A DNA stretch of 64,000 nucleotides from Candidatus Levyibacteriota bacterium. Its GTDB lineage: Bacteria > Patescibacteriota > Microgenomatia > Levybacterales > UBA12049. The stretch is taken from positions 342,780-406,779 of the forward strand of contig JBDRBE010000004.1 in NCBI GenBank assembly GCA_043823085.1. Direction: 5' to 3'. The notes under the pieces were generated by a model. The model was not told where the DNA came from. It saw nothing but the letters and a program-made list of their open reading frames with translations, and did not search any database. This document shows, piece after piece, positions 29,170 to 63,229 of this stretch. The position numbers were made by a program, and so were the translations under genes. Within the stretch, counting starts at the first letter, position 1. Every line of letters begins with the position of its first letter.

Positions 29170-31026
29170 TTAATTTCCTCCCGAACAATCTTTCGGACAA
29201 TTTTCTTTGGTTTCACCATTAATCGACTCGCAAATAGTATCACCGCATTTACTGGTTCCTTGTTTATTTTCTCCACCGGTCACCGGACTTGTTTTCTGGC
29301 CTAATAAACCTAAAATGAAATTAATAACCTGCTGTAACAAACCGGTTTGTCCTTTCCCTGAAAGCTGGTTTTCTATGCCGCTTGCTCCATTGTTCATTTC
29401 TTTCATCGCTTCACTCATTGGTTTTGGCTCAATAATCTTATCGCAGGAAAAAACTTTTGTCCTGTTTGGAGATAAAATCTCTTCAAAAAAGTAGGGGGAA
29501 CCGCCAGTTCCGACCGCAATATATTTACCATTTGCAGAAACAGCCACTTCTTCCACAAATTCTTTAAACTCTACAGGCGTATCTTTTTTTCCGCCAGCTG
29601 GCGGATTGGGATCCAATATGTGAACTTTGCTATCGGTGCTTCCCAAGGCAATTATGCTGCCGTCATCGGAAATATCAGCCGAACCTATGGTAGTATTTAA
29701 ATGCCAGTCTGAAATTGATTTACCATTTTTATTCAAAAGATAAACATCGCCTATAGTATTGGCTACCACAATTGAGTTTCCGTCAGATGTCATACCCATT
29801 GCCCTGGCAGCTTTGGAAGCAGAACCTGTAAATTTCCACAAGGGCGTAGAGGAGTTTCTAGAAAATGCTACTACCATTGAAGAATCAGGACCGCCGTCGG
29901 TAGAAAAACTGGCAAAACTTCCGTCTTTGGTAATCCTGGCTCGCTGAACTGGCGAATCATAAGTCAATCTGCCGGAAATCATTACCGGCTTATTGGAATC
30001 CTTACTGAAAATGTAGGCTTGGCGGTCCGGGCAGCCGGTTGAACCAACCACAAAACTACCGTCTTGGGAAAATGCAATATCATGAAAATTACCGGAAGAA
30101 TGATACTGCCACAATGGCTTTGAGGAATCTGCTTTCCATATAATTAACAAGTTGCTGTTTTGTTCATTTTCCGAACCGGCTGTGGCCGCTCCAACATATT
30201 GTCCGTCTTTAGAAATTGCTACATTATAGGCATTGCCTACATTGGACATCCAGACAGGCTGTTTACTGGATTTATTAAAAAATAAAACAGTGTCACCAAT
30301 TGAGGCAAAAATCTTTGAACCGTCAGAAGAAATTGCCGCCCCGCCTTTAACATCTCCGCCAATCATTCCTCCAGCACCTTGCTCGTAAACCCATAAAGGC
30401 TTACTGGATTTAGAAGTATCAAACAACAAAACTTTTCGGGAGGTTTTCGCAGCCAGGTATTTTCCATCATTAGATAAAGCTACTCCGCCAACCCATTCAT
30501 CACCCAACGGATATTCCAGAATCTTCTTGCCGGAACTGTCCATTACCGCTATCTCGTTATGTAGAAAATCTGATTCAAAAAGCACCGGCCCGTTGCCGGG
30601 AGAATCAATTATTCCTTCCCGAGTCTTGCCTAAACCGTTAGAGGCTTCAAAGAAGAAAAAGTTGCTGCCGATTTTATTGGGAACAAATTTATAAATGTAG
30701 CGGACGCCCTTTTTATAATCATTATTATTTGGATCTTCTTTTTGAGGTGTAATCCAACTGCCGTTAAAATACATTTTTACATATTCCGGCGGCCTGCCCT
30801 CTTTATCTTTGTAAGTTGTGTGATAAGTATATCTCTGACAGGGCGGCCCCCACATAGGATAAACCCCGCCATTTTCTAAAATTGGATCATTGGGAGTTTG
30901 AGGAAGTTTTGGAATCATCTGGCCCGGACCGGGCGGAGGCTTACTTTCTGCCAAAGTTTTAGGTAAACCAAAAAAGTGGCTGATTAAAAATAAAACCAGA
31001 CCAATCAGAAGAATTCTTTTCATCAT
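29170..31026 (-). CDS. secreted beta-propeller repeat protein (PQQ/WD40-like) with a Cys-rich C-terminal tail
   Basis: Likely start MMKRILLIGLVLFLIS (signal peptide). Repeated beta-propeller blades. C-terminus CGDTICESINGETKENCPKDCSGG. The upstream extension in the ORF track is spurious. Confidence 0.5.
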   Translation of the reverse strand: MMKRILLIGLVLFLISHFFGLPKTLAESKPPPGPGQMIPKLPQTPNDPILENGGVYPMWGPPCQRYTYHTTYKDKEGRPPEYVKMYFNGSWITPQKEDPNNNDYKKGVRYIYKFVPNKIGSNFFFFEASNGLGKTREGIIDSPGNGPVLFESDFLHNEIAVMDSSGKKILEYPLGDEWVGGVALSNDGKYLAAKTSRKVLLFDTSKSSKPLWVYEQGAGGMIGGDVKGGAAISSDGSKIFASIGDTVLFFNKSSKQPVWMSNVGNAYNVAISKDGQYVGAATAGSENEQNSNLLIIWKADSSKPLWQYHSSGNFHDIAFSQDGSFVVGSTGCPDRQAYIFSKDSNKPVMISGRLTYDSPVQRARITKDGSFASFSTDGGPDSSMVVAFSRNSSTPLWKFTGSASKAARAMGMTSDGNSIVVANTIGDVYLLNKNGKSISDWHLNTTIGSADISDDGSIIALGSTDSKVHILDPNPPAGGKKDTPVEFKEFVEEVAVSANGKYIAVGTGGSPYFFEEILSPNRTKVFSCDKIIEPKPMSEAMKEMNNGASGIENQLSGKGQTGLLQQVINFILGLLGQKTSPVTGGENKQGTSKCGDTICESINGETKENCPKDCSGGN

Positions 31027-31147
31027 CAACTGTAGCCTAATAAAACAGTATGTTATTGAGAAATTTTTGTCAAGAGCTAAAGGTTGAGTCTGGTGCAAAA
31101 ATCTTCTCCTTGACTTTGTTGTTTTAAAAACAGTACGATATAAACCT

Positions 31148-31708
31148 ATGGCAAAAGCTGATAAAAAAATCGAAGACCCGAATTTGTGTCCCAAGTGCGG
31201 CTCAACACTTGCCGAAATAACCGTCACCAAAACCGGACGAAAACTGCAAAGATGCGCTAAAGGCTCCTGGGATCCCGAGACTAGAAAAAATGTCGGATGC
31301 GATTATGTCAAATGGTTTGAAATTGAGCCGCAAGAACTGGATGAAATATGTCCCAAATGCGGCAGTAAATTAGTGTTGGCAGTTACCCGTTTTGGAAAGA
31401 AAATGAAAAAGTGTTCGAAAGGCTCTTGGGATAAAGAAGCCAAAAAAGCTGTCGGATGCGATTATATCGAATGGATCAATGGAACGACAGAACCATTAGA
31501 TGAAGAATGTCCGGACTGCCAAGAAAAATTGGTTTTGTTTACAACTGTAAACGGTAAAAAAATGAAAAAATGTTCAACCGCAGGATGGGACAAAATTGAG
31601 CGCAAAGCAACCGGCTGCCCGTATGTTTACTGGCTCAAGCCCAGTGAATATCCCCAAAATATTGATAGCGGCGGTGAAGAATATCTTCCCCCAGAACCGG
31701 AAGAGTAA
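31148..31708 (+). CDS. protein made of three tandem topoisomerase-I-type C4 zinc ribbons
   Basis: Three repeats of CPKCGS..(K)CSKGSWD..VGCDY(I/V)(K/E)W. Confidence 0.55.
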   Translation: MAKADKKIEDPNLCPKCGSTLAEITVTKTGRKLQRCAKGSWDPETRKNVGCDYVKWFEIEPQELDEICPKCGSKLVLAVTRFGKKMKKCSKGSWDKEAKKAVGCDYIEWINGTTEPLDEECPDCQEKLVLFTTVNGKKMKKCSTAGWDKIERKATGCPYVYWLKPSEYPQNIDSGGEEYLPPEPEE

Positions 31709-35321: not shown

Positions 35322-35439
35322 AGTCTAAATTTTCAATTTTAAATTTTCAATTTCAAATCAAATCTGAATGTTTTAATTATTAAATTTTAAATCATTAAAA
35401 ATTCATTAAAAATTAAATATTTCGAATTTAAAATTTGGT

Positions 35440-36030: not shown

Positions 36031-36190
36031 TGCGAGGAGGCATAAAATTTTCGCCGTTCGCATTTTGAGCTTAACATAAAAAGAACCGATTGAAAAGAGA
36101 CCTAATGAACAAATTAAGTAATTTTTAAAGAATGACTGTTGCGAACTGCGGAACAAGAAAACTTTTGTGCCGACTTCAGCAAAAATCTAG
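36031..36190. mobile_element. MITE-like element, second full copy (GGCATAAAATTTTCGCCGTTCGCATT ... GCGAACTGCGGAACAAGAAAACTTTTGTGCCGAC)
   Basis: Same terminal inverted repeats as 21651-21805. Confidence 0.6.
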
Positions 36191-40957: not shown

Positions 40958-41521
40958 ATGGCAGCACCACAAGAAGCACCAAAAAAAAATTGTATTTCAG
41001 AAGGAATTTCTCCAGCAAGTCTTTTTTTAGCGGAAGTTACAAGTTCATTTGGAGGCCCGATTAATGCAAGGCAAATTTGTAACCCAGAACTAAAATGCAA
41101 TTCTGCTACCGATATAAGACTTTGTCGAACACACGGTGTCGGTCAATTACCTGAAATAATTGTAATCTCTTCCGATTTAAAAGAAATAAATGAATCAGAA
41201 AACAATTCCTTATCTGTTTTTGTTACGTATGTTAATGAGTTTTGTATTGATCTCTCGGGTTGTCTAGCTAAAAGAACTCCCTTAATTAAACTAGATCTTA
41301 TCGTAAGACGCGATGAAGTTTTTTTTCAATTAGCAAGAATTCGCGATACTTCTTGGATAAGAATTTTACCGGAGGGTAGAATCTGTTTTTCAAGCAAGGG
41401 AACGGTTTTAGGAATAAAAGAAGACTCTGGTAAATTTACAATTTCAGCAATTGATATTGATCCTTTATTGATTGAAGAGGTTTTTGACTACGATGGCAAA
41501 CTAGATCTTTCTGAAAATTAA
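40958..41521 (+). CDS. hypothetical Cys-containing protein, probably co-transcribed with paralog C
   Basis: Starts 3 nt after the stop of C. No recognisable domain. Confidence 0.4.
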   Translation: MAAPQEAPKKNCISEGISPASLFLAEVTSSFGGPINARQICNPELKCNSATDIRLCRTHGVGQLPEIIVISSDLKEINESENNSLSVFVTYVNEFCIDLSGCLAKRTPLIKLDLIVRRDEVFFQLARIRDTSWIRILPEGRICFSSKGTVLGIKEDSGKFTISAIDIDPLLIEEVFDYDGKLDLSEN

Positions 41522-42150
41522 TACTCACTCCTTCCTTCCATGGCGCGTTGGAGAGTTAATTCGTCGGCGTATTCAATATCTGAACCGGTGGGCAGTCCCC
41601 TGCCAATTCGTGTTATTGTTAATTGTTGATTGTTGATTGTTGATTGTTGGCGAAGTTGCTTCGCCAAGTACATCGCCGTCGCCTCCCCTTCCATGGTCGG
41701 ATTCGTCGCCAGTATTATCTCGCGGACTAATGCTGAACTCGAACGCGGAACCGCGCCGACTCGCTCTAGCAGTTGGTGAATATAAATTTCATCCGGGCCG
41801 ATATTGTTGAGCGGATCAATCCTCCCATGGAGGACATGATAAACGCCGTTATACCTGCCGTTTTTTTCCAGCGCCAAAACATCCAAGGGCTCTTCAACCA
41901 CACAAATAGTTGAATCATCTCTTTTCTCATCAGAACAAATATTACAGGGGTCTTGCTCCCCTATCATAAAACATTTCGAACATAAGACCGTATCTTTTTT
42001 CAAATTGATAATAGATGAAGAAAATCTATCCAGTTCACCTTGAGGAACATGCAGTAAATAAAATGTTAGCCTCTGCGCTGTTTTTGGCCCAATTCCCGGC
42101 AGTCTTTCAAAGGACTCAATCAAATTCGCAATTGCTTTTGGGACTCTCAT
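41518..42150 (-). CDS. recR: recombination protein RecR, carrying an in-frame heptamer-repeat insertion
   Basis: HhH segment GIGPKTAQRL. C4 zinc finger CSKCFMIGEQDPCNIC. Toprim domain. (ATTGTTG)x5 at 41615-41649 encodes QQSTINNQQLT. Confidence 0.85.
   Translation of the reverse strand: MRVPKAIANLIESFERLPGIGPKTAQRLTFYLLHVPQGELDRFSSSIINLKKDTVLCSKCFMIGEQDPCNICSDEKRDDSTICVVEEPLDVLALEKNGRYNGVYHVLHGRIDPLNNIGPDEIYIHQLLERVGAVPRSSSALVREIILATNPTMEGEATAMYLAKQLRQQSTINNQQLTITRIGRGLPTGSDIEYADELTLQRAMEGRSEY
41615..41649. repeat. ATTGTTG heptamer tandem repeat (x5) inside the recR coding sequence
   Basis: Seen directly in the sequence. The same repeat is inside proS at 49581-49615. Confidence 0.7.
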
Positions 42151-42295
42151 ATTGGAATTCTTGAAGTCAGATTTCCTTGACGTTTTTGATCTTGATTCGT
42201 CAGCTGACGAATTGAAGTCTTGAAGTCTTGATATCTAGAAATCAAATTATCAAGAAATCAAGTTCAAGAAAATCCCACTTCTATCTTCAATGATT
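42151..42295. repeat. palindromic intergenic element (CAGCTG core, TCAAGAAAATCCCACTTCT terminus)
   Basis: Between recR and prs. Confidence 0.6.
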
Positions 42296-43255
42296 CTATT
42301 TTTTTATTTCTTCGGCGATAATATCAGCGACTGTTAGAATTTGCAGTTTGGGAAATCTTTTTTCTCTTGGACAATAAACCGTATCTGTCACAAAAAATTT
42401 CTTCACTGCCGATTTTTGCAAAATTTTTGGCGCACTCTTTGAAAATACTGAATGCGTCACAAAAACATAAACTTCCTTTATCCCCAATTTTCGGAGAAGT
42501 TTTGTCGCGGTAATTATTGTTCCTCCAGATGAAATCATATCATCAACAATAAACGCCCTTTTAATTTGCTTTAAACTGATATTTTCCAAACCCTCAATTT
42601 TATCTGCTGTCACTTGTCCGGTTTCCAAATTTCTGCTTTTGACAATCGCGCCAAAAAACATATCATTTAACATTTGCGAAAGCAATTTTATCCGTCTTAA
42701 TCCTCCCATATCCGGTGAAATCAAAAGGCTCTGCGAATTATTCCATTTATTTTTTTTAATTGTTTTGGCAAAAAGAGAAAGCGCAGAAAGATGAATAATC
42801 GGCATATGAAAAAGCTCGGGAATTTTAATAGAGTGGAGGTCAAAACAGATAAGTTTATCCATCCCCATCGCTTCTAAAGTTTTGATAATAACTTCCAAAG
42901 ACACCGCCTCGCCTGTTCTAAAAAGATGATCCTGCCTTTGATAACCAAGATACGGAATAACAGCGGTAATTGATTTTGCGCCGCTTCTTCTTAGAGCATC
43001 GACAATAAAAAAAAGCTCCATGTAATTTTGGTCAACAGGCGTACAGCAACTTTGCAAAACAACGCATTTTTGGTCTAAAACTTTGTCAATAATTCGAACG
43101 CGTTTTTCGCCGTCCGGGAAGATATATATTTCCAGAGGTGTTGGACTTGTGCTTAATTTACCTGCGAGTTTTTTTCCAAGTGTCTTACTGGAACTACCGC
43201 TTATAATCTTCACAACAGTTATTGTACTATGTGTCGAAAAAAAATCAATAAGCAA
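42296..43255 (-). CDS. prs: ribose-phosphate pyrophosphokinase
   Basis: PRPP synthetase motifs (DLHS, VDDMISSGGTI). Confidence 0.9.
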   Translation of the reverse strand: MLIDFFSTHSTITVVKIISGSSSKTLGKKLAGKLSTSPTPLEIYIFPDGEKRVRIIDKVLDQKCVVLQSCCTPVDQNYMELFFIVDALRRSGAKSITAVIPYLGYQRQDHLFRTGEAVSLEVIIKTLEAMGMDKLICFDLHSIKIPELFHMPIIHLSALSLFAKTIKKNKWNNSQSLLISPDMGGLRRIKLLSQMLNDMFFGAIVKSRNLETGQVTADKIEGLENISLKQIKRAFIVDDMISSGGTIITATKLLRKLGIKEVYVFVTHSVFSKSAPKILQKSAVKKFFVTDTVYCPREKRFPKLQILTVADIIAEEIKK

Positions 43256-43543
43256 TTAACGCCCAAGTAGTCCTCCGAGTCCTCCGCCCATTTGGGAAAG
43301 TTTACGTGCTGCCACTTCTTGGGACTTTTTAATGGCTTCGTTAACCGCCTCTTTAATATCGTTATCGGACTTTCCATTTGACGATAATTCTTTTATTTTT
43401 TGATCGCCGCTTATTACGACATTAACGCCATTTTTTTCAACCGTAACTTCTTCTCCTTGAAGCTGTTTTTGAATTTCCATGGCCTGATCGCGCATTTTCT
43501 TTAAATCGCCTAATTGTTGAAATGGATTCATCATAAAAATCAC
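43256..43543 (-). CDS. ybaB: nucleoid-associated protein YbaB/EbfC
   Basis: 95 aa. Matches the family (QQLGDLKKMRDQAMEIQKQLQ). The canonical dnaX-ybaB-recR order is partly kept. Confidence 0.8.
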   Translation of the reverse strand: MIFMMNPFQQLGDLKKMRDQAMEIQKQLQGEEVTVEKNGVNVVISGDQKIKELSSNGKSDNDIKEAVNEAIKKSQEVAARKLSQMGGGLGGLLGR

Positions 43544-43704
43544 CCCCTACTGTTTAGATTTCTTGACGTGAGATATTTTTGATATTCTTGATCTTGATTC
43601 GTCAGCTGACGAATTGAAGTCTTGAAATCTTGATATCTTGAGTTCAAGAAATCAAAAATTCAAGTTCAAGAAAATCCCACTTCTCACTTCAAAAATTCTA
43701 ATTA
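43544..43704. repeat. palindromic intergenic element, the fullest copy (TTGACGTGAGATA ... TTCGTCAGCTGACGAA ... GTTCAAGAAAATCCCACTTCTCACTTCAA)
   Basis: Between ybaB and dnaX. Confidence 0.6.
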
Positions 43705-45249
43705 CTATTTCTGTTTTAGTGAAATTGAAACGTCGATTGGGCTTCCTATAATTTGTTTACAAACCTTTTCTATAATATCACGAGTTTTTCTTTCTTCCAA
43801 GCGCTCTTTATGAAACTTATATCCGGCTTCTATGGCAAGATTTTTCCCGTCAAAACTTTTTAAAGTACATCCTCTTAGAACTCCTGCCACCGAATGATTG
43901 TAGGGCTTGACCAAATCAATAAGCTGTTTTAGGACATTTTTTTCGTCAAATATTCCGGGTTGATTAATCGCAGGATTCGATAACACTTCTTCTTTCTCCA
44001 CCTTTTTGTCGCGGAAAGACGCAGAACCGGACGCCAAACTACGCTGACTTTGAACATCTTGGTTTTGATTATTAGTTTCGCGTTTTTCTGCATTTTGTTC
44101 CGCATTCTTCTGCGCCTGTATTCCCCACTCCACAATTGCAATTTCAAGCGGCAATTGCGGCAGGACCGCATATTTTATTTCTCCATACGCCTTTGCCAAA
44201 ATTTCAATCAAAGACTTAATTTCATTAAGTTCTAAATTATAAGTTACAAGTCCTAAGTTATTTTCTACACCGACTTTTGATAATAAATTTAAATGCAGTT
44301 GGGAAATCATTTCTGATATAAAATATTTAACATCTATCCCCTCTTTTGTAATTCTTGATACCAATTCTAAGCTTTTTTTAGTGTCTTTTTTAGAAAGATA
44401 GTCCAACATCTTTGATACTTGATACTTGATACTTGATACTTGATATTTCTCCTCCACCAATTCTTTGGTAATCTTTTTTTTATTGGACATTAAAACAAGT
44501 TCTTCTAAGATTTTTACACCGTCGCGAAAACTGCCGTCGGACAATGAGGCAATATATTTTAGTTCTTCTTTTTCTATTGGAATATTTTCCTCTTTGGCAA
44601 TCCGCGAGAATGAACGCAGAAGTTCTTCTTGGGTCGCTCTCTTAAAAGAAATATGAAAACAACGCGAAAGGATAGTCGCCGGAACTTTTTGCGGTTCCGT
44701 GGTACAAAGAATAAAAACAGCATGACTCGGCGGCTCTTCTAAAGTTTTTAAAAGCGCATTAAAAGCTTCTGTGGTCAACATGTGAACTTCATCAATAATG
44801 TAAACTTTTTTAGAAGCCAGAGCAGGCGAAAGCCGTATTTTCTCACGCAAATCTCTTATCTCATCAATCCCTCTATTTGATGCTCCGTCTATTTCCAAAA
44901 CATCTAAATTTGTGCCATTAGTAATAGATTTACATTGCAAGCATTTATTACAAGGCTCAATACTAGCATCTAGCGTATACCTGCCTGCCGGCAAGGCAGG
45001 GCGTTTAGCGTTTAGTTTTTTTTCTTTTGAACTAGACACTAATTTATTAGACGCTAGACGCTCGCAATTGAGGATTTTTGCGACAATTCTGGCGGTTGAA
45101 GTTTTTCCAAGTCCTTTAGGTCCGGTAAAAAGAAAAGCGTGTTGTTCTGATTTTTGATCGCCGGAAAAAACAGCGGTTAATTTTTCTCTAATTTCTTGAC
45201 TATCAAGATCTTTAATTTTTTGCGGCCGATATTTTCGATAATAAACCAT
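43705..45249 (-). CDS. dnaX: DNA polymerase III subunit gamma/tau, carrying two in-frame repeat insertions
   Basis: AAA+ Walker A GPKGLGKTS and sensor motifs. (CTTGATA)x5 at 44410-44447 encodes SIKYQVSSIKYQVS. An ACGCTA-word block at 45001-45070 lies inside the Zn module, between NCE and EPCNKCLQC. Confidence 0.85.
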   Translation of the reverse strand: MVYYRKYRPQKIKDLDSQEIREKLTAVFSGDQKSEQHAFLFTGPKGLGKTSTARIVAKILNCERLASNKLVSSSKEKKLNAKRPALPAGRYTLDASIEPCNKCLQCKSITNGTNLDVLEIDGASNRGIDEIRDLREKIRLSPALASKKVYIIDEVHMLTTEAFNALLKTLEEPPSHAVFILCTTEPQKVPATILSRCFHISFKRATQEELLRSFSRIAKEENIPIEKEELKYIASLSDGSFRDGVKILEELVLMSNKKKITKELVEEKYQVSSIKYQVSKMLDYLSKKDTKKSLELVSRITKEGIDVKYFISEMISQLHLNLLSKVGVENNLGLVTYNLELNEIKSLIEILAKAYGEIKYAVLPQLPLEIAIVEWGIQAQKNAEQNAEKRETNNQNQDVQSQRSLASGSASFRDKKVEKEEVLSNPAINQPGIFDEKNVLKQLIDLVKPYNHSVAGVLRGCTLKSFDGKNLAIEAGYKFHKERLEERKTRDIIEKVCKQIIGSPIDVSISLKQK

Positions 45250-45325
45250 AAACTAAAAATTTCTAAGTTCTAATTTCTAATTGACCTAAATAATTTAGAA
45301 ATTAGGTTAATTAGGTTAATTTTTA

Positions 45326-45715
45326 TTATTCCTCATGATGTATTCCTAATAAATGTAATAGGCCATGTTGCACCAATTCGTCGATTTTTTCGTCAACAAG
45401 GACCTCTTCGAGTGCCGCTTCTTGGATAACTTTTGGATAAGAAACTACAACGTCGCCCAATCGAAGTGTGTCTGTTGGCAAAACCCCTGCTTCTCCCTCG
45501 TTTAGAGAAAAAGACAACACATTGGTCGCCATATCTTTTCCTTTATATTTTTTATTGAGGCTTCTCATTTTTCGGTTTCCAACAATTGCGACCGAAACCT
45601 CTGCCGGCCCAACAACTCCCTGCTCTTTTAATAAAGTTTTTACAGCAGTTGTAATGCGTTTGCGGTTGACCTGATATCTTGATTCAACGAAAATTAAAAT
45701 CTTAAAATTGTCCAT
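45326..45715 (-). CDS. ybeY: rRNA maturation endoribonuclease YbeY
   Basis: Metal-binding motif HGLLHLLGIHHEE. Confidence 0.75.
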   Translation of the reverse strand: MDNFKILIFVESRYQVNRKRITTAVKTLLKEQGVVGPAEVSVAIVGNRKMRSLNKKYKGKDMATNVLSFSLNEGEAGVLPTDTLRLGDVVVSYPKVIQEAALEEVLVDEKIDELVQHGLLHLLGIHHEE

Positions 45716-45893
45716 AAGCCCTTTTTGCCGCTCTTCTGGCATCTTCTTTTTTCTGCTTTCGGGCTAAAGATGGTTTAAGATAAAATCCTCGTCTTTTTGC
45801 TTCCTGCAAAATTCCTTCTGCCATTACTTTTCTGGAGAATTTACGAATAAGTCCTTCGTCGCTATCTCCAGGCATTTTTTTAACAATTACCAT
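45702..45893 (-). CDS. rpsU: ribosomal protein S21
   Basis: N-terminus MVIVKKMPGDSDEGLIRKFSRKV. Basic C-terminus. Likely start at 45893. Confidence 0.7.
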   Translation of the reverse strand: MVIVKKMPGDSDEGLIRKFSRKVMAEGILQEAKRRGFYLKPSLARKQKKEDARRAAKRAYGQF

Positions 45894-46183
45894 AATAAAA
45901 AACACCCCCTCCGAAAATACTACCAATCTTCAATATCTCAATAAAGGCGAGGAAACAAATTTTCGCAAGTTGCGAAGAATCATCAAAGACTTTCAAGGTT
46001 ATATGAGATACTAATAACGCAACCAATATCCAATAATCTAAAAAGAACCGGCGACAAGAAAATTTTGTTTCCGAGCCGTTTAAATTTCTCTATATATGAC
46101 CTGTGCTAGATGTCTCGTTCTATTCTACTCCAAGAAGTCAGCGGTGTAAATAGCCCGAAGTATTTTCTTTTAATGTGAGACAG

Positions 46184-46390
46184 TCAGTCTTTTAAAGGCG
46201 GCCGCATTCCAAGAGAGATATGCGGTCGTTTCTTGCGATAGTATACCAGATAATTCTCAACCTCTTTGGTTAAAACAGGTAATTCTTTTAATTTATATTT
46301 TGTCCAACCTAAACATTCCTTTCTCAAGCTCCTGTTAAAACTCTCAATAAGTATCTGCCGGAAAGGTCTTGAAAAGCCATAACCGTTCAA
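46184..46390 (-). pseudogene. C-terminal remnant of a DDE (rve) transposase, IS3/IS481-like
   Basis: ESFNRSLRKEC...YYRKKRPHISLG matches the conserved end of the integrase core domain. Only about 65 aa remain. Confidence 0.55.
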
Positions 46391-46504
46391 TAAAACCTTT
46401 CTAATTAAAAGTATATCAGAAAATTTTCGACGAAAAATTCAAAGGACCAAAGACTCAAAGAAACTAAAATCCAAAAACGAAGTGTCAAAAAATTCAAGAA
46501 CTAA

Positions 46505-47125
46505 TTACTTGCGAGGAGAAACGACAAACCCAACTCCAAGATCCCACCGGTCATCAAGGTCAGCATAAAGAGCACCCAACCACAACCCGTCCTCGTAGCG
46601 TACAACATACAAGACATCCGGACCGCCGCTCGAGTCAGTAACGGGTTCCATGACTCCAACCAAAGGTTTTCCTGTTTCAACATGGATATTGCCTTTTACT
46701 GCTTCTATTGCAATTTTTAACATTGCTTCCGCAGAAACCTTGTCTCCAAACTCTTCTGCTTTTCCCCAAACTTGCTTGGTTGTTGGATAATCACTACGTA
46801 TTCCCATGGTGCGGGCATCCATGACTACGGGATTTAGGGGTTCTTGGGGAGCAGTAGACCCTCTTTGAAGAATATATCTTCCCCAAATTCCGAGCCTTAG
46901 CCCTTCTGTGGAATCTGCCAATTTTTCCATATCTCCATTACTCATACCTGCCGTTTCAATTTCGGGGAGACGAATTGCTCCTTCAGGAAAAGGAGAAACT
47001 TTTAAAAGCCTCTCTAAACCTCTTTGTCTTGCAATTTTTGCCAATCCAAAAAGCCCTTTAGAAATATCTTCATTGCCAAAACGGCCATTAAATTCTTTAG
47101 CTAATTTTTCTAAATCTGCTGCCAT
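46505..47125 (-). CDS. hypothetical protein in a GC-rich (about 50%) islet
   Basis: 206-aa ORF. Markedly higher GC than its surroundings. Adjacent to the transposase remnant. Confidence 0.4.
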   Translation of the reverse strand: MAADLEKLAKEFNGRFGNEDISKGLFGLAKIARQRGLERLLKVSPFPEGAIRLPEIETAGMSNGDMEKLADSTEGLRLGIWGRYILQRGSTAPQEPLNPVVMDARTMGIRSDYPTTKQVWGKAEEFGDKVSAEAMLKIAIEAVKGNIHVETGKPLVGVMEPVTDSSGGPDVLYVVRYEDGLWLGALYADLDDRWDLGVGFVVSPRK

Positions 47126-47145
47126 TGAAAGTAGATGTTATCATA

Positions 47146-47511
47146 CTATGAGTTGATTGTCAATACCTCGGCGATTTTGGTAAAGTCTTTGGTGGCAAAT
47201 TTTGGCGGTTTTTTGTAATGAGGAGTTAAATGGACATGAGCGTGAGGCACATCAATTCCAATAACTCCCATCTGTATCCAATCTGCTCCTAATTTTTCCT
47301 TTAATAAAAGCGCAATTTCCTTAACCTTTTGGAAATACTCGGAGTAATTTTCCACCTCCCAAACCCACTCGTAATGTTTTTTTGGAATCACCAGCGTATG
47401 TCCGACGCCAAACGGATTAATGTCTAAAAAAGCAAGAAAATCCTTATCCTCATAGACCTTATAGCTTGGCAATTCACTTTTGACAATTTTACAAAAAACA
47501 CAACCTGTCAT
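47146..47511 (-). CDS. HIT family (histidine triad) hydrolase
   Basis: Segment GCVFCKI and the HxHxH motif PHAHVHLTPH. Confidence 0.75.
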   Translation of the reverse strand: MTGCVFCKIVKSELPSYKVYEDKDFLAFLDINPFGVGHTLVIPKKHYEWVWEVENYSEYFQKVKEIALLLKEKLGADWIQMGVIGIDVPHAHVHLTPHYKKPPKFATKDFTKIAEVLTINS

Positions 47512-47608
47512 TGCTTCATTGCTGCATTGCTCCATTGTTATCTTTAGCAATGGAACAATTGAACAATCCAACAATGTTCTTTTAAAACGACTGTGCCTTT
47601 TAATTCTA

Positions 47609-48676
47609 TTATATTTTTTCTAAAACTTGAATAATCTGTTTTAAAGTTAATCTTGATGCTCTCATTTTTGGGTTTTTGGCACTGCCGTTTAGAAGCATTT
47701 TCTTTGATACGTGCAAAAACCACGATGCTTGCGGATCCATTTTTTTGAATTTTTCATAAACCAAAGTCAGATCTGCTCCTTTTTCTCCGCTGACACTGGG
47801 CCGCGCTTTTATCCTTACATATCCTTTTCTCGGATCGCGTCTTACAACTATTGCATACCCCATTTTTTGCGCCAATTTTATAACCGAGTCATTAACTGTC
47901 TCAACACCCAAACCTTTCCCCCATCTTGTCTTAAACTCAATTCCTTTCTCGGCGATTTCTTTTTCGGCCCAAACTCTGTTTTCAAAATCATGTAAAATTG
48001 CATCAAGGCACTGCGAAATAAAATCAACATAAAAATTATCATCATTTGGCTTTTCAAGTTTCAACCCGTCTAAAATTCCTAAAATTGCAAAATCATGATA
48101 AAAAGCCGTAGGATTTTCCCACAAAGCTTCTCTAAAATGATCAATATCTGTCACAACCTTTACAATTCTACCTATGGCTTCGCTCTTGTCTTTCATTCTC
48201 TCGCTCTCCGAACTTTGAACTTTGCCCTGAACTTGTCGGATGGATGAATTTTGAACTTTCTTGATGTAGTCCCAAACCAAACTGGATGCGCTGATGCTTT
48301 CATCGGAAGTTAAATGATGGTCCAAAGGTCCAAGTCCAGTATCAACATGAATCATTTCGTTGTCATCAATCTTCTCGATAGCATCTAAAGAAGAATTTTT
48401 GCCGCGGGGAGGCACAAAATTTTCGCTGTTCGCATCTTGTCGAGCGCCAATGCGTTGATGAACGCCTTGAGACTCATCGCGAGACAACTGCGGAACAAGA
48501 AAATTTTCGTGCCGACCTAAGCGGCTCAAACCCTCTTTTCCTCTCACTCGCAACCTTTCTCCCGATAAAACAAATCTCACTTCTGCATTTTCCCATCCTG
48601 CTAAAAATCTTTTTGTCAACCAAACCGAGCAAATCGCATCTAAATCAGGAGAAGTATGGGTAACAACAATTTTCAT
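47609..48676 (-). CDS. DHH family phosphoesterase (NrnA-like) carrying an in-frame MITE insertion
   Basis: DHH motif I HTSPDLDAICS and the DHH motif in VDTGLGPLDHH. A 125-nt MITE copy at 48401-48525 is translated between them. A GAACTTTG-repeat insert lies at about 48181-48260. Confidence 0.6.
   Translation of the reverse strand: MKIVVTHTSPDLDAICSVWLTKRFLAGWENAEVRFVLSGERLRVRGKEGLSRLGRHENFLVPQLSRDESQGVHQRIGARQDANSENFVPPRGKNSSLDAIEKIDDNEMIHVDTGLGPLDHHLTSDESISASSLVWDYIKKVQNSSIRQVQGKVQSSESERMKDKSEAIGRIVKVVTDIDHFREALWENPTAFYHDFAILGILDGLKLEKPNDDNFYVDFISQCLDAILHDFENRVWAEKEIAEKGIEFKTRWGKGLGVETVNDSVIKLAQKMGYAIVVRRDPRKGYVRIKARPSVSGEKGADLTLVYEKFKKMDPQASWFLHVSKKMLLNGSAKNPKMRASRLTLKQIIQVLEKI
48401..48525. 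mobile_element. MITE-like element copy inside the DHH phosphoesterase reading frame
   Basis: GGCACAAAATTTTCGCTGTTCGCAT ... CTGCGGAACAAGAAAATTTTCGTGCCGAC. 125 nt, which is about 42 codons with no stop. Confidence 0.6.
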
Positions 48677-48897
48677 ATACTGTAAGTATACAAAAAATTC
48701 AAACTCTTGACAAACTTTTAAAAATGTTACAATATATTATTATACCGAATTTTTGAGGTGGGAAGTGGGATTTTCTTGAACTTGATTTCTTGATAATTTG
48801 ATTTCTAGATATCAAGATTTCAAGACTTCAATTCGTCAGCTGACGAATCAAGATCGAAGACGTCAAGGATATCTAACTTCAAGAATTCCAAATAATT
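48677..48897. repeat. palindromic intergenic element plus overlapping divergent promoters
   Basis: GGTGGGAAGTGGGATTTTCTTGAACTTGA ... TTCGTCAGCTGACGAA. TTGACA on the plus strand at 48706. On the minus strand, TTGTCA-N17-TATACT-N6-ATG serves the DHH gene. Confidence 0.55.
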
Positions 48898-49371
48898 ATG
48901 GACCCGAAAACTGCCCAATTAGATCCTAAACTGAAAGAAGCCTACGAACGCGTTATGGGCACAGCCGTTCCCAAAACGCAAACTCCCCAAGCTCCTCAAA
49001 CTCCCCAACCTCTAACGCCAGTGAAGGAGGCCTCCATTCCTACGGCTAATACCAAAGGAGTTATCATACCCCCTGTCCAAAATCCTTCAGTTGCGCCCGT
49101 TGCTCCAAATACTCCAACACCAGGAATTATTACTAATTCGGGAATAACAACTCCTTCTGTTAAAACTCCGGTTTCTCCATCTATAAATAAAGGAACAAGT
49201 TTTAGCGCAACTGCTGGCAAAGGGGGGTCAGGAGGATTTCCCAGAATTTTAATTTTTCTTTTTCTGCTGATCTTTTTTGTAGGATACGGTATATTTTGGA
49301 TTAAATTCTTTAAACTCTCTGTCCCTTATCTTTCCGACCTTGTCATCCCCGGCCTTGGCAAAGTCTTTTAA
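48898..49371 (+). CDS. hypothetical Pro/Thr-rich protein with a C-terminal TM anchor
   Basis: 157 aa. PQTPQ repeats. C-terminus FPRILIFLFLLIFFVGYGIFWI. Confidence 0.4.
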   Translation: MDPKTAQLDPKLKEAYERVMGTAVPKTQTPQAPQTPQPLTPVKEASIPTANTKGVIIPPVQNPSVAPVAPNTPTPGIITNSGITTPSVKTPVSPSINKGTSFSATAGKGGSGGFPRILIFLFLLIFFVGYGIFWIKFFKLSVPYLSDLVIPGLGKVF

Positions 49372-51079
49372 TTACTTCGTCTATTGTTAACATTTCTGTT
49401 TCGCTTTTAGCTCTTTCTTTGCATTCAATTTTATCACCGGTTTTGCCTGAAATTACTAAACGTATTGGACAACCGATTAAATCGCAGTCGGCGAATTTTT
49501 CCCCTGCCGAAATATCTCTATCGTCATAAAAAACCTCAATCCCCGCATCTTGCAATTTTTCATAAATTTCATCCGCCATTTTGTTGATTGTTGATTGTTG
49601 ATTGTTGATTGTTACGAGGTGTACCAAGTATGGTGCAACCGCTTCCGGCCACTTAATCCCTTTATCATCAGAGTGAACTTCAACAACCGCCGCCATTGTC
49701 CTTGCAATTCCAATTCCATAACAACCCATGTAATATGGTTTTTCTTTTCCGTTTTCGTCTGTAAAAGTGGCGCCTTTCATTTTTGAAGAATAGTGAAATC
49801 CAAGCTGAAAAATATTTCCAACCTCAATCCCCCGTTTTTCTATCAGTTTTTGACCGTTTGGCGCGGCGTATCCTGCTTTTGCAAGCTTGAACTCATAAAA
49901 CTTTTCAGGCTTGGGCAAGTCCCTGCCAAAATTTACATTAATATTGTGAATATTGGTTTTATTCGAACCCATTTCAAAATTCTTTCTTCCTCTCATTGAC
50001 TCATCCATAAAAATTCTGACATCTTTTGGTAAATTCAAAAGCCCGGCATATCCCACTTCTGCTCCTGTTATTTTTCTGACAGTCTCGGCCGACGCAAGCT
50101 TTAAAGAATAAACTTTGGCAACATGCGAGAGCTTAGTTTCATTTATCTCAAAATCTCCTCTGACTGCCGCGGCAATAACTTTTCCATTCTCGTCTTCAAA
50201 GAGAAGTGTTTTTGTGGTTTGTTCAACCGGAATATCAAGAAACTTCGCCAGCTCAAAAACTCCAATAATCCCTTTGCCCTCAACTTCTTCCATCGGCCTC
50301 TCTTCTTCACCGCTTTCTATTTGGTTTAATGAAAGTTTTGCAACGTCTTCATGGACACAATAACTTCCATCCTCTGTTGTCAAATACCTGCTTTCTCCGC
50401 TTTCATGTTCCACCACAAATTCATGACAATATTCCCCCCCGATATAACCGTTATCCGATTCAACAATAATAGTTTTCAACCCCAAACGCTCAAAAATTTT
50501 AGTGTAAGTTTTTTTCATTTTTTCATACTCTTTTTTGAAATCTTCCTCTGTTGTATGAAAAGAATATCCGTCTTTCATCACAAATTCTTTAACTCGCAAA
50601 AGCCCCCCCCGCGGCCGCAGTTCATCCCGAAACTTGGTAGAAAATTGGTAGAGATTAAAAGGCAAATCTTTGTAGCTTATCTGAAATTTACGAACTAAAT
50701 CAACCAGCATTTCCTCTGCTGTCCCACCCAAAACAAATTCCATTTCGTTTCTGTCTTTAACTTTTACAAGTTCAAAACCAACCGAATTTGTGCGGTTTGT
50801 TTCTTTCCATAAAGCAACCGGATGAAGAATTGGTGCTGTGATTTCCTGCGCACCTGCTTTATCCATTTCAACTTTTATAATATCTTGAATTTTCTGGTGG
50901 ACTTTTTGGCCAAGCGGTAAAAAATAATAACGCCCTGCTGTACTTTCGCGGATAAATCCTGCCTTATAAAGAAGTTTATGGGAAGTAATAACCGCATCCT
51001 TTGGCGCTTCCCGAATTGTTCTTCCAAACAGTTTTGAATATCTCATAACAAAAGTATAGCACAAATCCGCGATTGTCAT
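49343..51079 (-). CDS. proS: prolyl-tRNA synthetase (bacterial type), carrying an in-frame heptamer-repeat insertion
   Basis: Class II motifs and an anticodon-binding C-terminus. (TTGTTGA)x4 at 49581-49615 encodes TINNQQSTIN in the linker. Confidence 0.9.
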   Translation of the reverse strand: MTIADLCYTFVMRYSKLFGRTIREAPKDAVITSHKLLYKAGFIRESTAGRYYFLPLGQKVHQKIQDIIKVEMDKAGAQEITAPILHPVALWKETNRTNSVGFELVKVKDRNEMEFVLGGTAEEMLVDLVRKFQISYKDLPFNLYQFSTKFRDELRPRGGLLRVKEFVMKDGYSFHTTEEDFKKEYEKMKKTYTKIFERLGLKTIIVESDNGYIGGEYCHEFVVEHESGESRYLTTEDGSYCVHEDVAKLSLNQIESGEEERPMEEVEGKGIIGVFELAKFLDIPVEQTTKTLLFEDENGKVIAAAVRGDFEINETKLSHVAKVYSLKLASAETVRKITGAEVGYAGLLNLPKDVRIFMDESMRGRKNFEMGSNKTNIHNINVNFGRDLPKPEKFYEFKLAKAGYAAPNGQKLIEKRGIEVGNIFQLGFHYSSKMKGATFTDENGKEKPYYMGCYGIGIARTMAAVVEVHSDDKGIKWPEAVAPYLVHLVTINNQQSTINKMADEIYEKLQDAGIEVFYDDRDISAGEKFADCDLIGCPIRLVISGKTGDKIECKERAKSETEMLTIDEVIKRLCQGRG

Positions 51080-52604: not shown

Positions 52605-53606
52605 TTACTTCTTCTTCACCGGATGTCTTCCAAATTGCCAGCGCATGGCGGCAACCACTTTGTTACGAAATCCGTTTGGTGATATTTCTTTATCTTTATC
52701 TGAATTATCGCGAACGCAAACTGATGCGTTAAGGACTGGCGTCTCAACACCCATTTTCTTTGCCATTTCAACAGTCCAGTGCCCCTCCCCTTTTGTTTTT
52801 CCAGAACCTCCGCCTGAACCAATGACCGATGAAATATCCGAAAGGTTTTGGTCTTTTTTTAATTCATTTAAAGTCCAGCCAACTAAACGCGATTCTATTA
52901 TTGAACCGTTATTGTAAATTCGAAAGACTTCGCTAAGGTCATATTTAAACGGAGCATATTTTAAAATCGCCGCGCCTTCGCCAATTGCCTCCATCATGCC
53001 ATATTCAATTCCGTTGTGAATTGTCTTGGCAAAATGTCCAGCTCCAATTGGCCCCAAATGCGCGTAGCCGTCTTTTCTGGCAGCAGATTTTAGAATCGGC
53101 TCAATTCTTTTGAAGTCTTCTTTTTGCCCTCCGACCATAATACATGCGCCATTTCTTGCTCCTTCTATTCCTCCGCTTATTCCGCAGTCCATATAATGAA
53201 TTTGTTTTTTTGCTAAAGTTTTTGCACGCCGCAAAGTATGTGTGTAAAGCGAATTTCCTCCGTCAATTATCAAATCGCCAGAGGATAATTTATCCATCAA
53301 CTCGTTTAAAACCGCATCAACGGCCTCTCCAGCGCTAACCATCAGCCAGATTATTCGTGGGGTCTTTAAAGTTTTAACTAATTCTTCTAAGGTTTTTGTT
53401 GTTGTTAAATTCCCACCATTTGAATTATGAATTATGAATTTTGAATTATGAATTTTTTTATTTTTCCATAATTCCTGATTCCTAATTCTTAATTCTTCTA
53501 TCGATTCTTTTGATCGATTCCACGCCACAATTTCCATCCCCTCTTCCAAAAGATGCAAAACCATTGCCTTTCCCATTTTGCCCAAACCAATAAATCCAAT
53601 CTTCAT
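52605..53606 (-). CDS. gnd: 6-phosphogluconate dehydrogenase-like NAD(P)-binding protein (short form), carrying an in-frame repeat insertion
   Basis: N-terminus MKIGFIGLGKMGKAM is a Rossmann fold. C-terminal 6PGDH domain. AATTCATAATTCA-type repeats at 53421-53500 encode RIRNQELWKNKKIHNSKFIIHNSNGG. Confidence 0.65.
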   Translation of the reverse strand: MKIGFIGLGKMGKAMVLHLLEEGMEIVAWNRSKESIEELRIRNQELWKNKKIHNSKFIIHNSNGGNLTTTKTLEELVKTLKTPRIIWLMVSAGEAVDAVLNELMDKLSSGDLIIDGGNSLYTHTLRRAKTLAKKQIHYMDCGISGGIEGARNGACIMVGGQKEDFKRIEPILKSAARKDGYAHLGPIGAGHFAKTIHNGIEYGMMEAIGEGAAILKYAPFKYDLSEVFRIYNNGSIIESRLVGWTLNELKKDQNLSDISSVIGSGGGSGKTKGEGHWTVEMAKKMGVETPVLNASVCVRDNSDKDKEISPNGFRNKVVAAMRWQFGRHPVKKK

Positions 53607-53666
53607 AATAGAAATTCTTACATTTATAAATAAGAGAGTCAAGTCCTAAATTATTTAAACAAATAA

Positions 53667-56962: not shown

Positions 56963-58192
56963 TTATGGACCAAAAATATTTTTGCCGGAAATTAATCTGG
57001 TTAAATCATGAAAAGTTATTAAGGCAATTAAAGTCAAAAGTAATGCCATACCAATCGCGTGAGAGTAGCTTTCGAATTTGGCCGGAACTCTTCGCCGAGT
57101 TGCTACTTCTATCAGAATAAAAAACAATCTTCCACCGTCCAAAGCCGGAATTGGCAAGATATTAAAAAAAGCAAGCGAAATCGACAATATTCCGGCGAGA
57201 TTTAGAACCTGTAAAATTTTTTCTTTAAGATCGGGTATTTTAACAATATTTCCAACCAAAGAGTATATTCCTACCGGACCGGCAACGCTTTGGGAAATAG
57301 GCTCGGCGGTTTTTTCTTTTATCGAAATACCAATTAGCTGTCCCATGATGTTGAAATTGTAAGCCAGAAGATTTAATGGATGAGTAAATCCGGAAAATAT
57401 TTTTTGAGGAACAGTTTTATAATCTAAAACTACCATTGAAACCGGAAAAAAACTAATTCCGATTGCTCCCTCGTTTTTGGGAGGATTTATTCTTGGTGTA
57501 ATTTTTGCAAAATAATTTTTATTATTTTTTGCATCCTGCCATGCAACTGTAATTTCTTTTCCTTTATTTTTACTAATAATTTCGGCAAAATAATTCACAT
57601 CATTAACTTTTTGTCCATTTATAGAAAGAATCTTTGAAAAAGATTTAATTCCCGCAATTTCTGCCGGCGAGTTTTTGGCAACATCGGCAATAATTATATC
57701 CGAAGAGTTAGTTTGAGAAACGGCAAAAAATTTATGATCGCCCAAAAGCGGGAGCTGGGTTTTAAAATCGGAAATAAATAAAAATGCGTAGAAAATAACT
57801 GCGGCAAGAACTGTATTCATAAAAACGCCGGCCACTACAATCACCGCTCTTTGTCCGACCGGTCTTGCAAAAAACGCACGGTCTTTATTCTTAATTCTTA
57901 ATTCCTGATTTTTAATTCCCGGCCTGCCGCTACCGGCCTCATCCTCGCCATAAAGTTTTACAAATCCGCCAATCGGCAGCCAATTAATTGAATAAATAGT
58001 CTCGCCCTTTTTTATGCCAAACGCTCTTGGAGGAAGTCCAAACCCAAATTCTTCAACTTTTATCCCTAATTTTTTTGCTACAAAAAAATGCCCAAACTCG
58101 TGAATCAACACTAAAATCGAGAGAATAACCAAAAAAACAACGGCCGTAATTATCATAAATTTTGACTTATATATCGCGGGGAGCCTTTTCAT
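56963..58192 (-). CDS. rseP: RseP-type site-2 protease (M50) with a PDZ domain
   Basis: HEFGH zinc motif in TM1. PDZ domain. LDGG motif. In-frame insert IKNQELRIKNKD from the TAATTCTTAATTCCTGATT repeat at 57886-57921. Confidence 0.8.
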   Translation of the reverse strand: MKRLPAIYKSKFMIITAVVFLVILSILVLIHEFGHFFVAKKLGIKVEEFGFGLPPRAFGIKKGETIYSINWLPIGGFVKLYGEDEAGSGRPGIKNQELRIKNKDRAFFARPVGQRAVIVVAGVFMNTVLAAVIFYAFLFISDFKTQLPLLGDHKFFAVSQTNSSDIIIADVAKNSPAEIAGIKSFSKILSINGQKVNDVNYFAEIISKNKGKEITVAWQDAKNNKNYFAKITPRINPPKNEGAIGISFFPVSMVVLDYKTVPQKIFSGFTHPLNLLAYNFNIMGQLIGISIKEKTAEPISQSVAGPVGIYSLVGNIVKIPDLKEKILQVLNLAGILSISLAFFNILPIPALDGGRLFFILIEVATRRRVPAKFESYSHAIGMALLLTLIALITFHDLTRLISGKNIFGP

Positions 58193-62073: not shown

Positions 62074-62213
62074 GGGCTAGTTTTTAGAATCTTTGATGTG
62101 AGAAGTGGGATTTTCTTGAACTTGACCGTTTTGATATCTAGATATCTAGAATTCAAGAAATCGAAGATTCAAGATCAAAAATGTCAAAAATATCTCACGT
62201 CAAAAATTCTAGT
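62074..62213. repeat. palindromic intergenic element, a copy lacking the CAGCTG core
   Basis: Termini TAGAATCTTTGATGTGAGAAGTGGGATTTTCTTGAACTTGA and ATATCTCACGTCAAAAATTCTAG. Aligns with the reverse complement of the 43544 copy. Confidence 0.55.
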
Positions 62214-62744: not shown

Positions 62745-63229
62745 AAATTATGAATTTTTGAACTTTTAATCAAACCGTTTGAATCGCTAAAAAACTTAAT
62801 TGCATCCTCCACCGTTTGTTTAACATTTGCCAATAATTGATATTTATCTAAATCTGACGTTTTTACCCATTCCGGAATTGTTTCTTCCGATTCTTTTATT
62901 TCCCCTGAAAATTTTAAACAAAGAAAAACATGCCAGGAAAAATTTACAACTCCCTGTTTTCTTTTAATTGCCGCATAATAAATATTATTAGGATAATCAA
63001 CAAATGAAATTCCTGTTAACCCCGTTTCTTCTTTTAATTCTCTAATTGCCGTATCTTTTTCTGTTTCACTCTCATCAACTTTTCCGCCGGGCAAACCATA
63101 AATTCCTGTCAAATGTCCTGCTTTTTGGGTATGTCTTACAAGCAAAACTTTATCATCTTTGATAAGTAATGCCGCCGCTGATAAAACAATATTTTTAAGT
63201 TTTTGATTTTTCGTAGAAGCCTCCTGCAA
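62741..63229 (-). CDS. NUDIX hydrolase
   Basis: Nudix box GGKVDESETEKDTAIRELKEETGL. Confidence 0.7.
   Translation of the reverse strand: MQEASTKNQKLKNIVLSAAALLIKDDKVLLVRHTQKAGHLTGIYGLPGGKVDESETEKDTAIRELKEETGLTGISFVDYPNNIYYAAIKRKQGVVNFSWHVFLCLKFSGEIKESEETIPEWVKTSDLDKYQLLANVKQTVEDAIKFFSDSNGLIKSSKIHNL

Follow-up and report, generated by a model that had tools for sequence, protein, structure and literature searches.

A 64,000-nt stretch of the genome of a Candidatus Levyibacteriota bacterium (contig JBDRBE010000004.1, forward-strand positions 342,780 to 406,779; hereafter the window) carries in-frame tandem arrays of 7-nt units in the housekeeping genes recR, dnaX and proS. We consider it probable, at roughly 0.6, that these are slippage-driven heptanucleotide microsatellites, i.e., long simple sequence repeats (SSRs), which are homogenised and which, inside genes, have passed filters for reading frame, stop codons and loop tolerance. 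We infer that slippage and conversion within the arrays were the generator and that selection acted as a filter only; the recR, dnaX and proS arrays are probably tolerated passengers, neither adaptive switches nor functional protein motifs. The observations to be accounted for are the anatomy of the arrays, their statistics and lineage distribution, their recurrence at the same sites, the 21-nt length classes of proS and an excess of nucleotide conservation, all of which the data show. The genes and repeats at the centre of the analysis, with arrays as called by Tandem Repeats Finder (TRF), are the following.

41518-42150, minus strand: recR gene, 210 aa (NCBIfam TIGR00615 recR, E = 1.4e-70)
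41611-41649, minus strand: recR heptamer array, TRF unit TGTTGAT (coding CAATCAA), 5.7 copies, 93% matches
43705-45249, minus strand: dnaX gene, 514 aa (NCBIfam TIGR02397 dnaX_nterm, E = 2.1e-100)
44412-44445, minus strand: dnaX heptamer array, TRF unit TTGATAC (coding GTATCAA), 4.9 copies, 100% matches
44960-45062, minus strand: second repeat-derived insertion in dnaX, aa 63-97, with decayed heptamer pairs GCGTCTA x2 and CTAAACG x2
49343-51079, minus strand: proS gene (NCBIfam PRK09194 proline--tRNA ligase, E = 3e-191)
49581-49613, minus strand: proS heptamer array, TRF unit TTGTTGA (coding TCAACAA), 4.7 copies, 100% matches
63838-63872, minus strand: degenerate octamer tract in thyA, TRF period 8, 4.4 copies, 77% matches

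At a score of at least 40, TRF returned 12 period-7 rows in the window, whereas 30 shuffles that preserved dinucleotides averaged 0.03, and chance is therefore excluded. Among periods 4 to 12, exact arrays of at least three copies occurred in the window at period 7 only; the over-representation of this period in the host genome is judged from 64 kb of that genome. An earlier note on this DNA had reported in-frame heptamer repeats in recR, proS, dnaX and thyA. The first three are real (4.7 to 5.7 copies, 93 to 100% matches), while the thyA tract (CAAATCAA / TAAAACAA / CGAATCAA; peptide NQQINKTTNQQ) is also real but is a degenerate octamer, a related A-rich unit at period 8. The thyA open reading frame (ORF; 63195-63971, minus strand) has a TTG start and matches ThyA profiles only from profile position ~56-61; this ORF call therefore misses the true N-terminus of the gene, which may extend up to the window end at 64000 or beyond it. 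These four genes are not special: the arrays are a genome-wide and lineage-wide class, coding as well as intergenic, and further arrays of both kinds are present within the window.

For comparison, recR with 10 kb of flank on either side was taken from 80 species-representative Microgenomates genomes which, together with the window, gave 1.27 Mb. Non-overlapping arrays with a score of at least 40 numbered 111 at period 7, 70 at period 14 and 13 at period 21; period 12 contributed 42 and the remaining periods at most 22 each (period 8, 13; period 9, 17). About half of the loci had no period-7 array and others had 3 to 9 per 20 kb, which makes this a lineage-specific property, with Levy-, Gottesman-, Chisholm-, Davies- and Woesebacteria as contributors. 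A lower threshold gave 236 arrays, of which 71 (~30%) were intergenic and 35 lay at ORF edges, as split by a crude longest-ORF map; about 90% of the surveyed DNA is in ORFs and 10% intergenic, so the arrays are enriched in non-coding DNA. Their lengths were bimodal, with a peak at 30 to 34 nt (4.3 to 4.9 copies) and a trough at 20 to 26 nt.

The RecR protein of the window was 100% identical to a protein of a Candidatus Levyibacteriota (Patescibacteria, Microgenomates) metagenome-assembled genome (MAG) at NCBI, and the recR array was identical in an independent Logan assembly (L001). The exact part of the array spans 41622-41649, and the array encodes QQSTINNQQLTIT (RecR aa 168-180; wider translation ...LRQQSTINNQQLTITRIGRG). 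As had been proposed, recR and proS carry one repeat, a single necklace (coding CAATCAA) giving the same peptide with a 7-aa period, and the recR copy lies in a loop before a conserved strand, namely between the Toprim domain and the VTRIGRG strand, where the loop is 6 aa longer than in the Thermoanaerobacter RecR structure 3VDP. This loop (from ...EATAMY to RIGRG) held different heptamer arrays in different species: (CAATCAA)n in the clade of the window, (CTCAAAA)n in L029 (perfect, 30 nt) and L015, (CTCCCAA)n in L011, and (AATCTCA)n in L002 and L014. A frequent RecR peptide at this site, LKTQNSKLKI, is (CTCAAAA)n translated through its three frames. Outgroup recR loops consisted of non-repetitive DNA, with the loop length unchanged. 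Within RecR clusters of at least 90% identity, the loop was the sole highly variable segment, swapping array types and gaining palindrome-like inserts of 8 to 17 aa. The recR gene had been counted among essential genes; it is not essential in model bacteria.

We also observed that the loop types KNLKSQISNLK, REQSTINNQQ and QLKVxxSKxK recur across different clusters of at least 90% identity (P0014, P0121 and P0122 of cluster 1, and clusters 4 and 5), which suggests repeated convergence or recombinational loop exchange among Levybacteria.

In dnaX, the array encodes (E)KYQVSSIKYQVSK / YQVSSIKYQVSK (DnaX aa 269-280; wider translation ...EEKYQVSSIKYQVSKML...). The earlier note thus had the array right, although its peptide reading 'SIKYQVSSIKYQVS' was slightly off, the residues preceding KYQVS being EE. 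By alignment to E. coli gamma, the array sits at the junction of domains II and III, with zero net length change relative to gamma and to 27 of 49 orthologs; orthologs that lack a repeat here have a region of equal length. Orthologous (GTATCAA)n arrays were found in L007 (one mismatch) and, in decayed form, in L014 and L004. A second site, aa 63-97, is ~30 aa longer than the corresponding part of E. coli gamma; its heptamer pairs are split by a 21-nt GC-rich palindrome (44980-45000), and L007 has an uninterrupted (CTAAACG)4.3 array there. Programmed frameshifting in dnaX uses a slippery X XXY YYZ sequence with a stimulatory structure, located after domain III. We rejected the array as such a site, as GTATCAA lacks homopolymeric triplets and an X XXY YYZ motif, and the array does not lie where such a site would be.

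The palindrome in dnaX belongs to a 20-nt GC-rich family, CCTGCCTGCCGGCAGGCAGG, with 11 occurrences (at most 3 edits) in 1.3 Mb of diverse Microgenomates, including 44980-45000 of the window, L025 10531-10550 and 11428-11447, L044 1284-1303, L079 2624-2643, L085 3626-3645 and L022 5006-5025. It lies in frame within genes in the window dnaX (peptide PALPAGR) and in the recR loop of L025. Other short GC-rich palindromes occupied the RecR loop of relatives, namely CCCCGATTAAATCGGGG in L085, CGCCAGCTGGCG in L013 and CCGTCAGCTGACGG in L007.

The longest proS ORF encodes 578 aa (567 aa in the NCBI call), and the protein is 100% identical to P0146, the ProS of the same Candidatus Levyibacteriota MAG at NCBI. 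Its array encodes VTINNQQSTINK (ProS aa 489-500; wider translation ...LVTINNQQSTINKMADE...) and had been placed in an inter-domain linker; it is in fact internal to the anticodon-binding domain (Pfam HGTP_anticodon, 486-573), where it occupies the beta1-alpha1 loop, and this region aligns without gaps to the ProRS of P. aeruginosa. The same site holds (AAGTCAA)4.6 in a Chisholmbacteria genome and a decayed (GCGTGAA)-type array in Daviesbacteria. Among 120 relatives, the ProS loop measured 30 aa (15 proteins), 32 aa (22), 37 aa (70) or 44 to 45 aa (3), and the classes of 30, 37 and 44 aa are separated by steps of 21 nt. The window loop of 37 aa equals the 30-aa loop of P0148 (74% identical) plus 7 aa; removing three units from the window proS leaves LVTINKMADEIYE, in agreement with short-loop orthologs such as L005, which has LIGLNKKADEAYQ. 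The idea that copies come in multiples of three units therefore stands at proS, with its 21-nt loop classes, and fails at RecR (a 4-aa difference between loop classes) and DnaX (no length change). The arrays themselves are not multiples of 21 nt long either; they measure 33 to 39 nt (4.7 to 5.7 copies).

Arrays of one locus tended to share units. Unit diversity was high (77 necklaces among 133 arrays). The same necklace was found in 4.2% of within-locus pairs versus 1.3% of between-locus pairs (odds ratio 3.3, p = 0.002), and in 21% versus 10% when one mismatch was allowed (odds ratio 2.4, p = 6e-7). In the window, recR, proS and the ORF at 8403 form a CAATCAA family, and a gnd-like gene, the Nudix/folA junction and rseP form an AATTCAT/ATTAAGA family, i.e., three arrays each; locus L041 has seven AAAACTC-family arrays. 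Two pairs of arrays were similar beyond the repeat: the intergenic array at 18726-18749 is inside a 57-nt inverted copy of 35335-35391 (pair I6), and the Nudix/folA and gnd-like arrays have 45 nt in common at 82% identity (pair D8). Such sharing, the flanking similarity in I6 and D8 and the similar array size in all contexts would fit a spread in which ~20-35 nt blocks of an existing array are copied elsewhere, whether through ectopic conversion or through insertions templated while breaks are repaired. We nevertheless think this improbable: the proS array is fully accounted for by a local 1.7-copy seed plus three units, the recR and proS arrays of the window have no clear common flanks, and the units found at one site across species look as if they were derived from one another by point mutation, in keeping with evolution at the site itself. 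Unit sharing within a genome partly supports the shared dispersed seed proposed earlier; the base and oligonucleotide composition of a genome could also produce it.

According to the slippage reading, slipped-strand misalignment of short local seeds would generate arrays and keep their units homogeneous; as a mutational property common to many Microgenomates genomes it would produce arrays genome-wide, and inside genes only a filtered subset would persist. Pure gain or loss of units would be viable only by three units (21 nt, 7 aa), because the net change must be a multiple of 3 nt. A stop filter would demand a unit without stop codons in every coding-strand rotation, and a loop filter would demand that the 7-aa-periodic, mostly hydrophilic peptide land in a tolerant loop. 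Since 7 leaves a remainder of 1 when divided by 3, a heptamer array is read in all three frames. Among near-perfect coding arrays, 17 of 20 were stop-free in every rotation on the coding strand versus 6 of 20 on the opposite strand, with 63% of random genomic heptamers as a baseline. Coding-strand units contained 45% A and 10% G, and the encoded peptides are therefore rich in Q, N, S, T, K and I. Alignment to solved structures of RecR, ProRS and the clamp loader places the arrays in loops or at junctions between domains. Within coding sequence, 16 arrays measured 21 to 29 nt and 54 measured 30 to 38 nt, compared with 25 and 25 in intergenic DNA (Fisher p = 0.003); this avoidance of intermediate lengths in genes is as expected if only three-unit changes are viable.

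Two accounts of array length were discarded. In-frame selection is not the sole cause of the ~32-nt size, as intergenic arrays also peak there, with less sharp quantization. The notion that every array is a +21-nt insertion holds at proS only: length differences between array-bearing proteins and their orthologs gave broad spectra with a mode of 0 and no general peak at +7 aa.

Ordinary conserved or low-complexity protein, with an incidental DNA periodicity, has next to no probability as an explanation and is refuted by the codon data. It could point to QSTINNQQ-like peptides in ~15 RecR relatives and KYQVSSIK-like peptides in several DnaX orthologs. However, the shared peptides use the same codons, not drifted ones, the perfect periodicity over 28 to 34 nt is far beyond chance, non-coding DNA is likewise rich in this class of repeat, and the corresponding positions of more distant orthologs hold unrelated sequence or a different heptamer. 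The arrays are true repeats and not conserved peptides, as the earlier note had it: relatives with the same peptide share its codons, the heptamer at a given site changes in lineages further removed, and the case that the note had named as a refutation, equivalent peptides from unrelated codons, did not arise.

Several observations sit awkwardly with slippage and filtering. Intergenic arrays likewise peak at 30 to 32 nt, a size that would not be predicted from plain slippage by one unit. The loops that hold coding arrays are in many cases no longer than their counterparts (dnaX; recR of L029, L014, L024, L026 and L041), requiring conversion or compensating indels and not simple expansion, and the RecR loop classes, with modes at 15 and 19 aa, lie 4 aa apart instead of 7. 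In the five species of the QSTINNQQ clade, whose RecR proteins are 76 to 88% identical to one another, codons were identical at 9 to 10 of the 10 to 11 conserved residues of the recR array versus 43 to 59% elsewhere; for dnaX of the window and L007, the corresponding figures were 10 of 11 array codons and 45% outside the array, in proteins 61% identical. Such conservation exceeds what is expected of a neutral passenger, so that an extra assumption, homogenisation, would be required. In homogenised units, one substitution would strike all three codon positions and several residues at once, or create a stop, and unit turnover would consequently be more disfavoured than a synonymous change. No slippage event was directly observed in these data.

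The excess codon conservation would also fit direct selection on nucleic acid. The ~32-nt arrays could accordingly be functional elements, selected for their DNA or RNA sequence and accommodated in genes, for example as periodic sites for a single-strand-binding oligonucleotide-binding (OB)-fold protein of the S1/Csp type or for a nucleoid or replication factor. Nucleotide conservation in arrays exceeds that at flanking synonymous sites, coding and intergenic arrays both have 4.3 to 4.9 copies, in parallel with the four-unit preference of GGGNATC repeats (PMC4692102), and many intergenic arrays adjoin -10-like boxes or start codons, a position that recalls the TAACTGA repeats of Beggiatoaceae (PMC4679880). 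Unit families are genome-specific, and in I6 and D8 flanking sequence is dispersed along with the array. We still regard a functional element as unlikely. The number of necklaces and the differences between species at one site speak against a partner that recognises a particular sequence, roughly one in two related genomes lacks arrays over ~20 kb, closeness to start codons is expected anyway because intergenic regions are short, and no candidate binding protein was identified. Slightly more doubtful is a stronger form, in which arrays of ~4-5 units (~32 nt) would be a distinct Microgenomates element, actively homogenised and selected at the nucleotide level, with the four-unit preference general to bacterial heptamers and not a product of G-quadruplex formation. 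If it were true, a protein or replisome feature reading 7-nt modules, or a 21-bp step (two helical turns), might underlie the preference, and coding arrays would be places where element and protein loop co-evolve.

The earlier note had further suggested that the repeats could act as contingency loci in essential genes, and in that case frequent 21-nt copy changes would vary the loops of RecR, DnaX and ProS adaptively. The 30-, 37- and 44-aa classes of ProS and the confinement of high variability to the loop in RecR clusters of at least 90% identity could be taken in its favour. However, four assemblies of the P0071 species (L086-L089; 99.3 to 100% identical over 3.7 to 6.6 kb) had the same 29-nt recR array, as the window and L001 share theirs, the exact P0071 protein occurred on at least 24 contigs and the exact P0029 protein on 10, and a metagenome scan with the recR array flanks of one species and a variable gap gave a single match of the same length. 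No copy-number variation was thus seen among near-identical strains, which were few and represented by assemblies rather than reads. Close RecR relatives differ by 1, 8, 9, 14 or 17 aa or by whole-unit swaps, not by 7-aa steps, and the arrays are short (4 to 6 copies). All three genes have intracellular housekeeping roles, and gaining or losing one unit would shift the frame and give a null allele of dnaX or proS, both of which model bacteria require for viability. Hypermutable contingency loci are therefore highly improbable.

Beyond the central genes, the window contains the following arrays.

8426-8461, plus strand: TTTGTTG x5.1 at the N-terminus of ORF 8403-9170, encoding the hydrophobic peptide ILLFVVCCLLFVV
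9183-9219: intergenic AATAGCT x4.4 (or period 14), between ORF 8403-9170 and ORF 9234-9980
18726-18749: intergenic ATTGAAA x3.4, between convergent ORFs
35326-35436: AT-rich composite intergenic period-7 tract, TAAATTT and TTAAAAT types
45258-45282: intergenic AATTTCT x3.6, ending 9 nt upstream of the dnaX start codon
53421-53495, minus strand: two neighbouring arrays in the gnd-like gene (52605-53642)
57882-57918, minus strand: ATTAAGA x5.3, 76% matches, in rseP, encoding GIKNQELRIKNKD
62730-62756, minus strand: AATTCAT x3.9 across the Nudix stop and folA start

The TTTGTTG unit belongs to the recR/proS unit family in the opposite orientation. In the gnd-like gene, AATTCAT x4.9 encodes KIHNSKFIIHNS and TTAGGAA x4.4 encodes ELRIRNQELWK, and the protein is 5 to 23 aa longer than its orthologs at this site. 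At the Nudix/folA junction, one array provides both the Nudix end (KIHNL*) and the folA start (MIHNSK) via an overlapping ATGA. An Rfam scan of the whole window found one tRNA only, so that no array corresponds to a known RNA. We ruled out an assembly artefact, as the arrays are in frame, were repeated in an independent assembly and are present in dozens of unrelated MAGs. Accumulated 7-bp target-site duplications of transposons were also set aside, as they leave the copy-number peak and the in-place arrays unexplained and no transposase is nearby.

The AT-rich composite has the form (AAATTTT)n ... CATTCAAATTT.ATTTCAAATT ... (AAAATTG)n, which is kept across several Levybacteria. It is present in the window at 35326-35436 and 18693-18749, an inverted 57-nt pair, and elsewhere in L026 (849-955 and 8787-8896), L022 (11410-11483) and L007 (1637-1690).

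Other repeats were noted in passing. An intergenic element of ~150 nt is scattered over the window in at least six copies (5893-6023, 23801-23966, 42152-42301, 43553-43703 and, inverted, 48747-48892 and 62078-62211), 84 to 92% identical and each just upstream of a gene, in one case recR. Its sequence includes the motif AAGTGGGAT, the palindrome TTCGTCAGCTGACGAA and repeats resembling octamers (TTGAAATC / CTTGATTT); it had no Rfam match and could be a leader/promoter module or a miniature inverted-repeat transposable element. A 56-nt direct repeat family with the core CTGCGGAACAAGAAAACTTTTGTGCCGAC occurs at 21744-21799, 36125-36180 and 48467-48522 (71 to 89% identity), and the palindrome TCCGCCAGCTGGCGGA lies at 29590-29605, inside ORF 29170-31230.

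These results extend heptanucleotide over-representation to the small, AT-rich genomes of the Candidate Phyla Radiation (CPR). They indicate that conserved housekeeping proteins can accommodate a repeat with a unit length not divisible by three, which is read in three frames, has a 7-residue period and can change viably only in steps of 21 nt. Heptamer arrays account for much of the loop-length variation of RecR, ProS and DnaX in this group, and annotators and phylogeneticists should treat these loops with caution, as they are repeat-driven. The preference for ~4-5 units in A/T-rich arrays casts doubt on the G-quadruplex (G4) explanation given elsewhere, and the excess codon conservation poses a concrete, testable puzzle for concerted evolution in genes.

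Heptanucleotide repeats are the most abundant class of long SSRs in many bacteria, and slippage has been proposed as their origin (Mrazek, Guo and Shah 2007, as summarised in PMC4679880 and PMC4692102). They resemble the arrays studied here in their tandem 7-nt units, over-represented period, genome-wide occurrence, enrichment in non-coding DNA and proposed origin. They were described mainly from large, often GC-rich genomes of free-living bacteria and cyanobacteria, whereas the genomes here are small, AT-rich (~37% GC) CPR genomes. The many in-frame housekeeping arrays also set the present case apart, and that description did not include 21-nt quantization, same-site persistence with turnover of units or excess codon conservation. 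The GGGNATC repeats of Xanthomonas and Nostoc are likewise genome-wide heptamers in non-coding excess, often at most 50 bp from ORF ends, and favour about four units, which was ascribed to G4 formation (Rehm et al. 2015, PMC4692102). Our arrays are A/T-rich and lack runs of G (no window unit has GGG), so they cannot form a G4, yet they have a similar copy preference. The TAACTGA direct repeats of marine Beggiatoaceae occur in 2 to 6 copies, often directly upstream of start codons (MacGregor 2015, PMC4679880). They are a single unit with stop codons, nearly excluded from ORFs (PMC4679880), in contrast to the many units and stop-free coding arrays described here.

Phase-variable contingency loci, such as the tetranucleotide tracts of Haemophilus and Neisseria, are also SSRs in ORFs whose unit is not a multiple of three, but those are long tracts in surface, lipopolysaccharide or restriction-modification genes with strain-variable copy numbers, and here we found short tracts in housekeeping genes and saw no polymorphism. 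Rickettsia palindromic elements are selfish in-frame DNA in protein genes, mobile palindromes of ~100-150 bp. Our arrays share with them the tolerance of repetitive DNA in frame, in conserved proteins and at surface-exposed positions, but are local tandem heptamers of ~32 nt; the 20-nt GC-rich palindromes are the closer analogue. The short tandemly repeated repetitive (STRR) sequences of cyanobacteria (Calothrix, Nostoc, Anabaena) are also dispersed heptamer families in which few units dominate a genome. STRR units include CCCCAGT, TTGGTCA and CAACAGT, and STRRs are mostly intergenic. The window units (CAATCAA, GTATCAA, AATTCAT and others) match none of these, and the phylum differs.

We found no description of SSRs or heptanucleotide repeats in Patescibacteria/CPR in the searchable literature. 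The arrays belong to the general class of heptanucleotide SSRs, not to the STRR, GGGNATC or TAACTGA families, and the features new to this class are the CPR host, the many in-frame housekeeping arrays, the turnover of units at the same site, the 21-nt classes of proS, the excess codon conservation and a preference for ~4-5 units in arrays unable to form G4.

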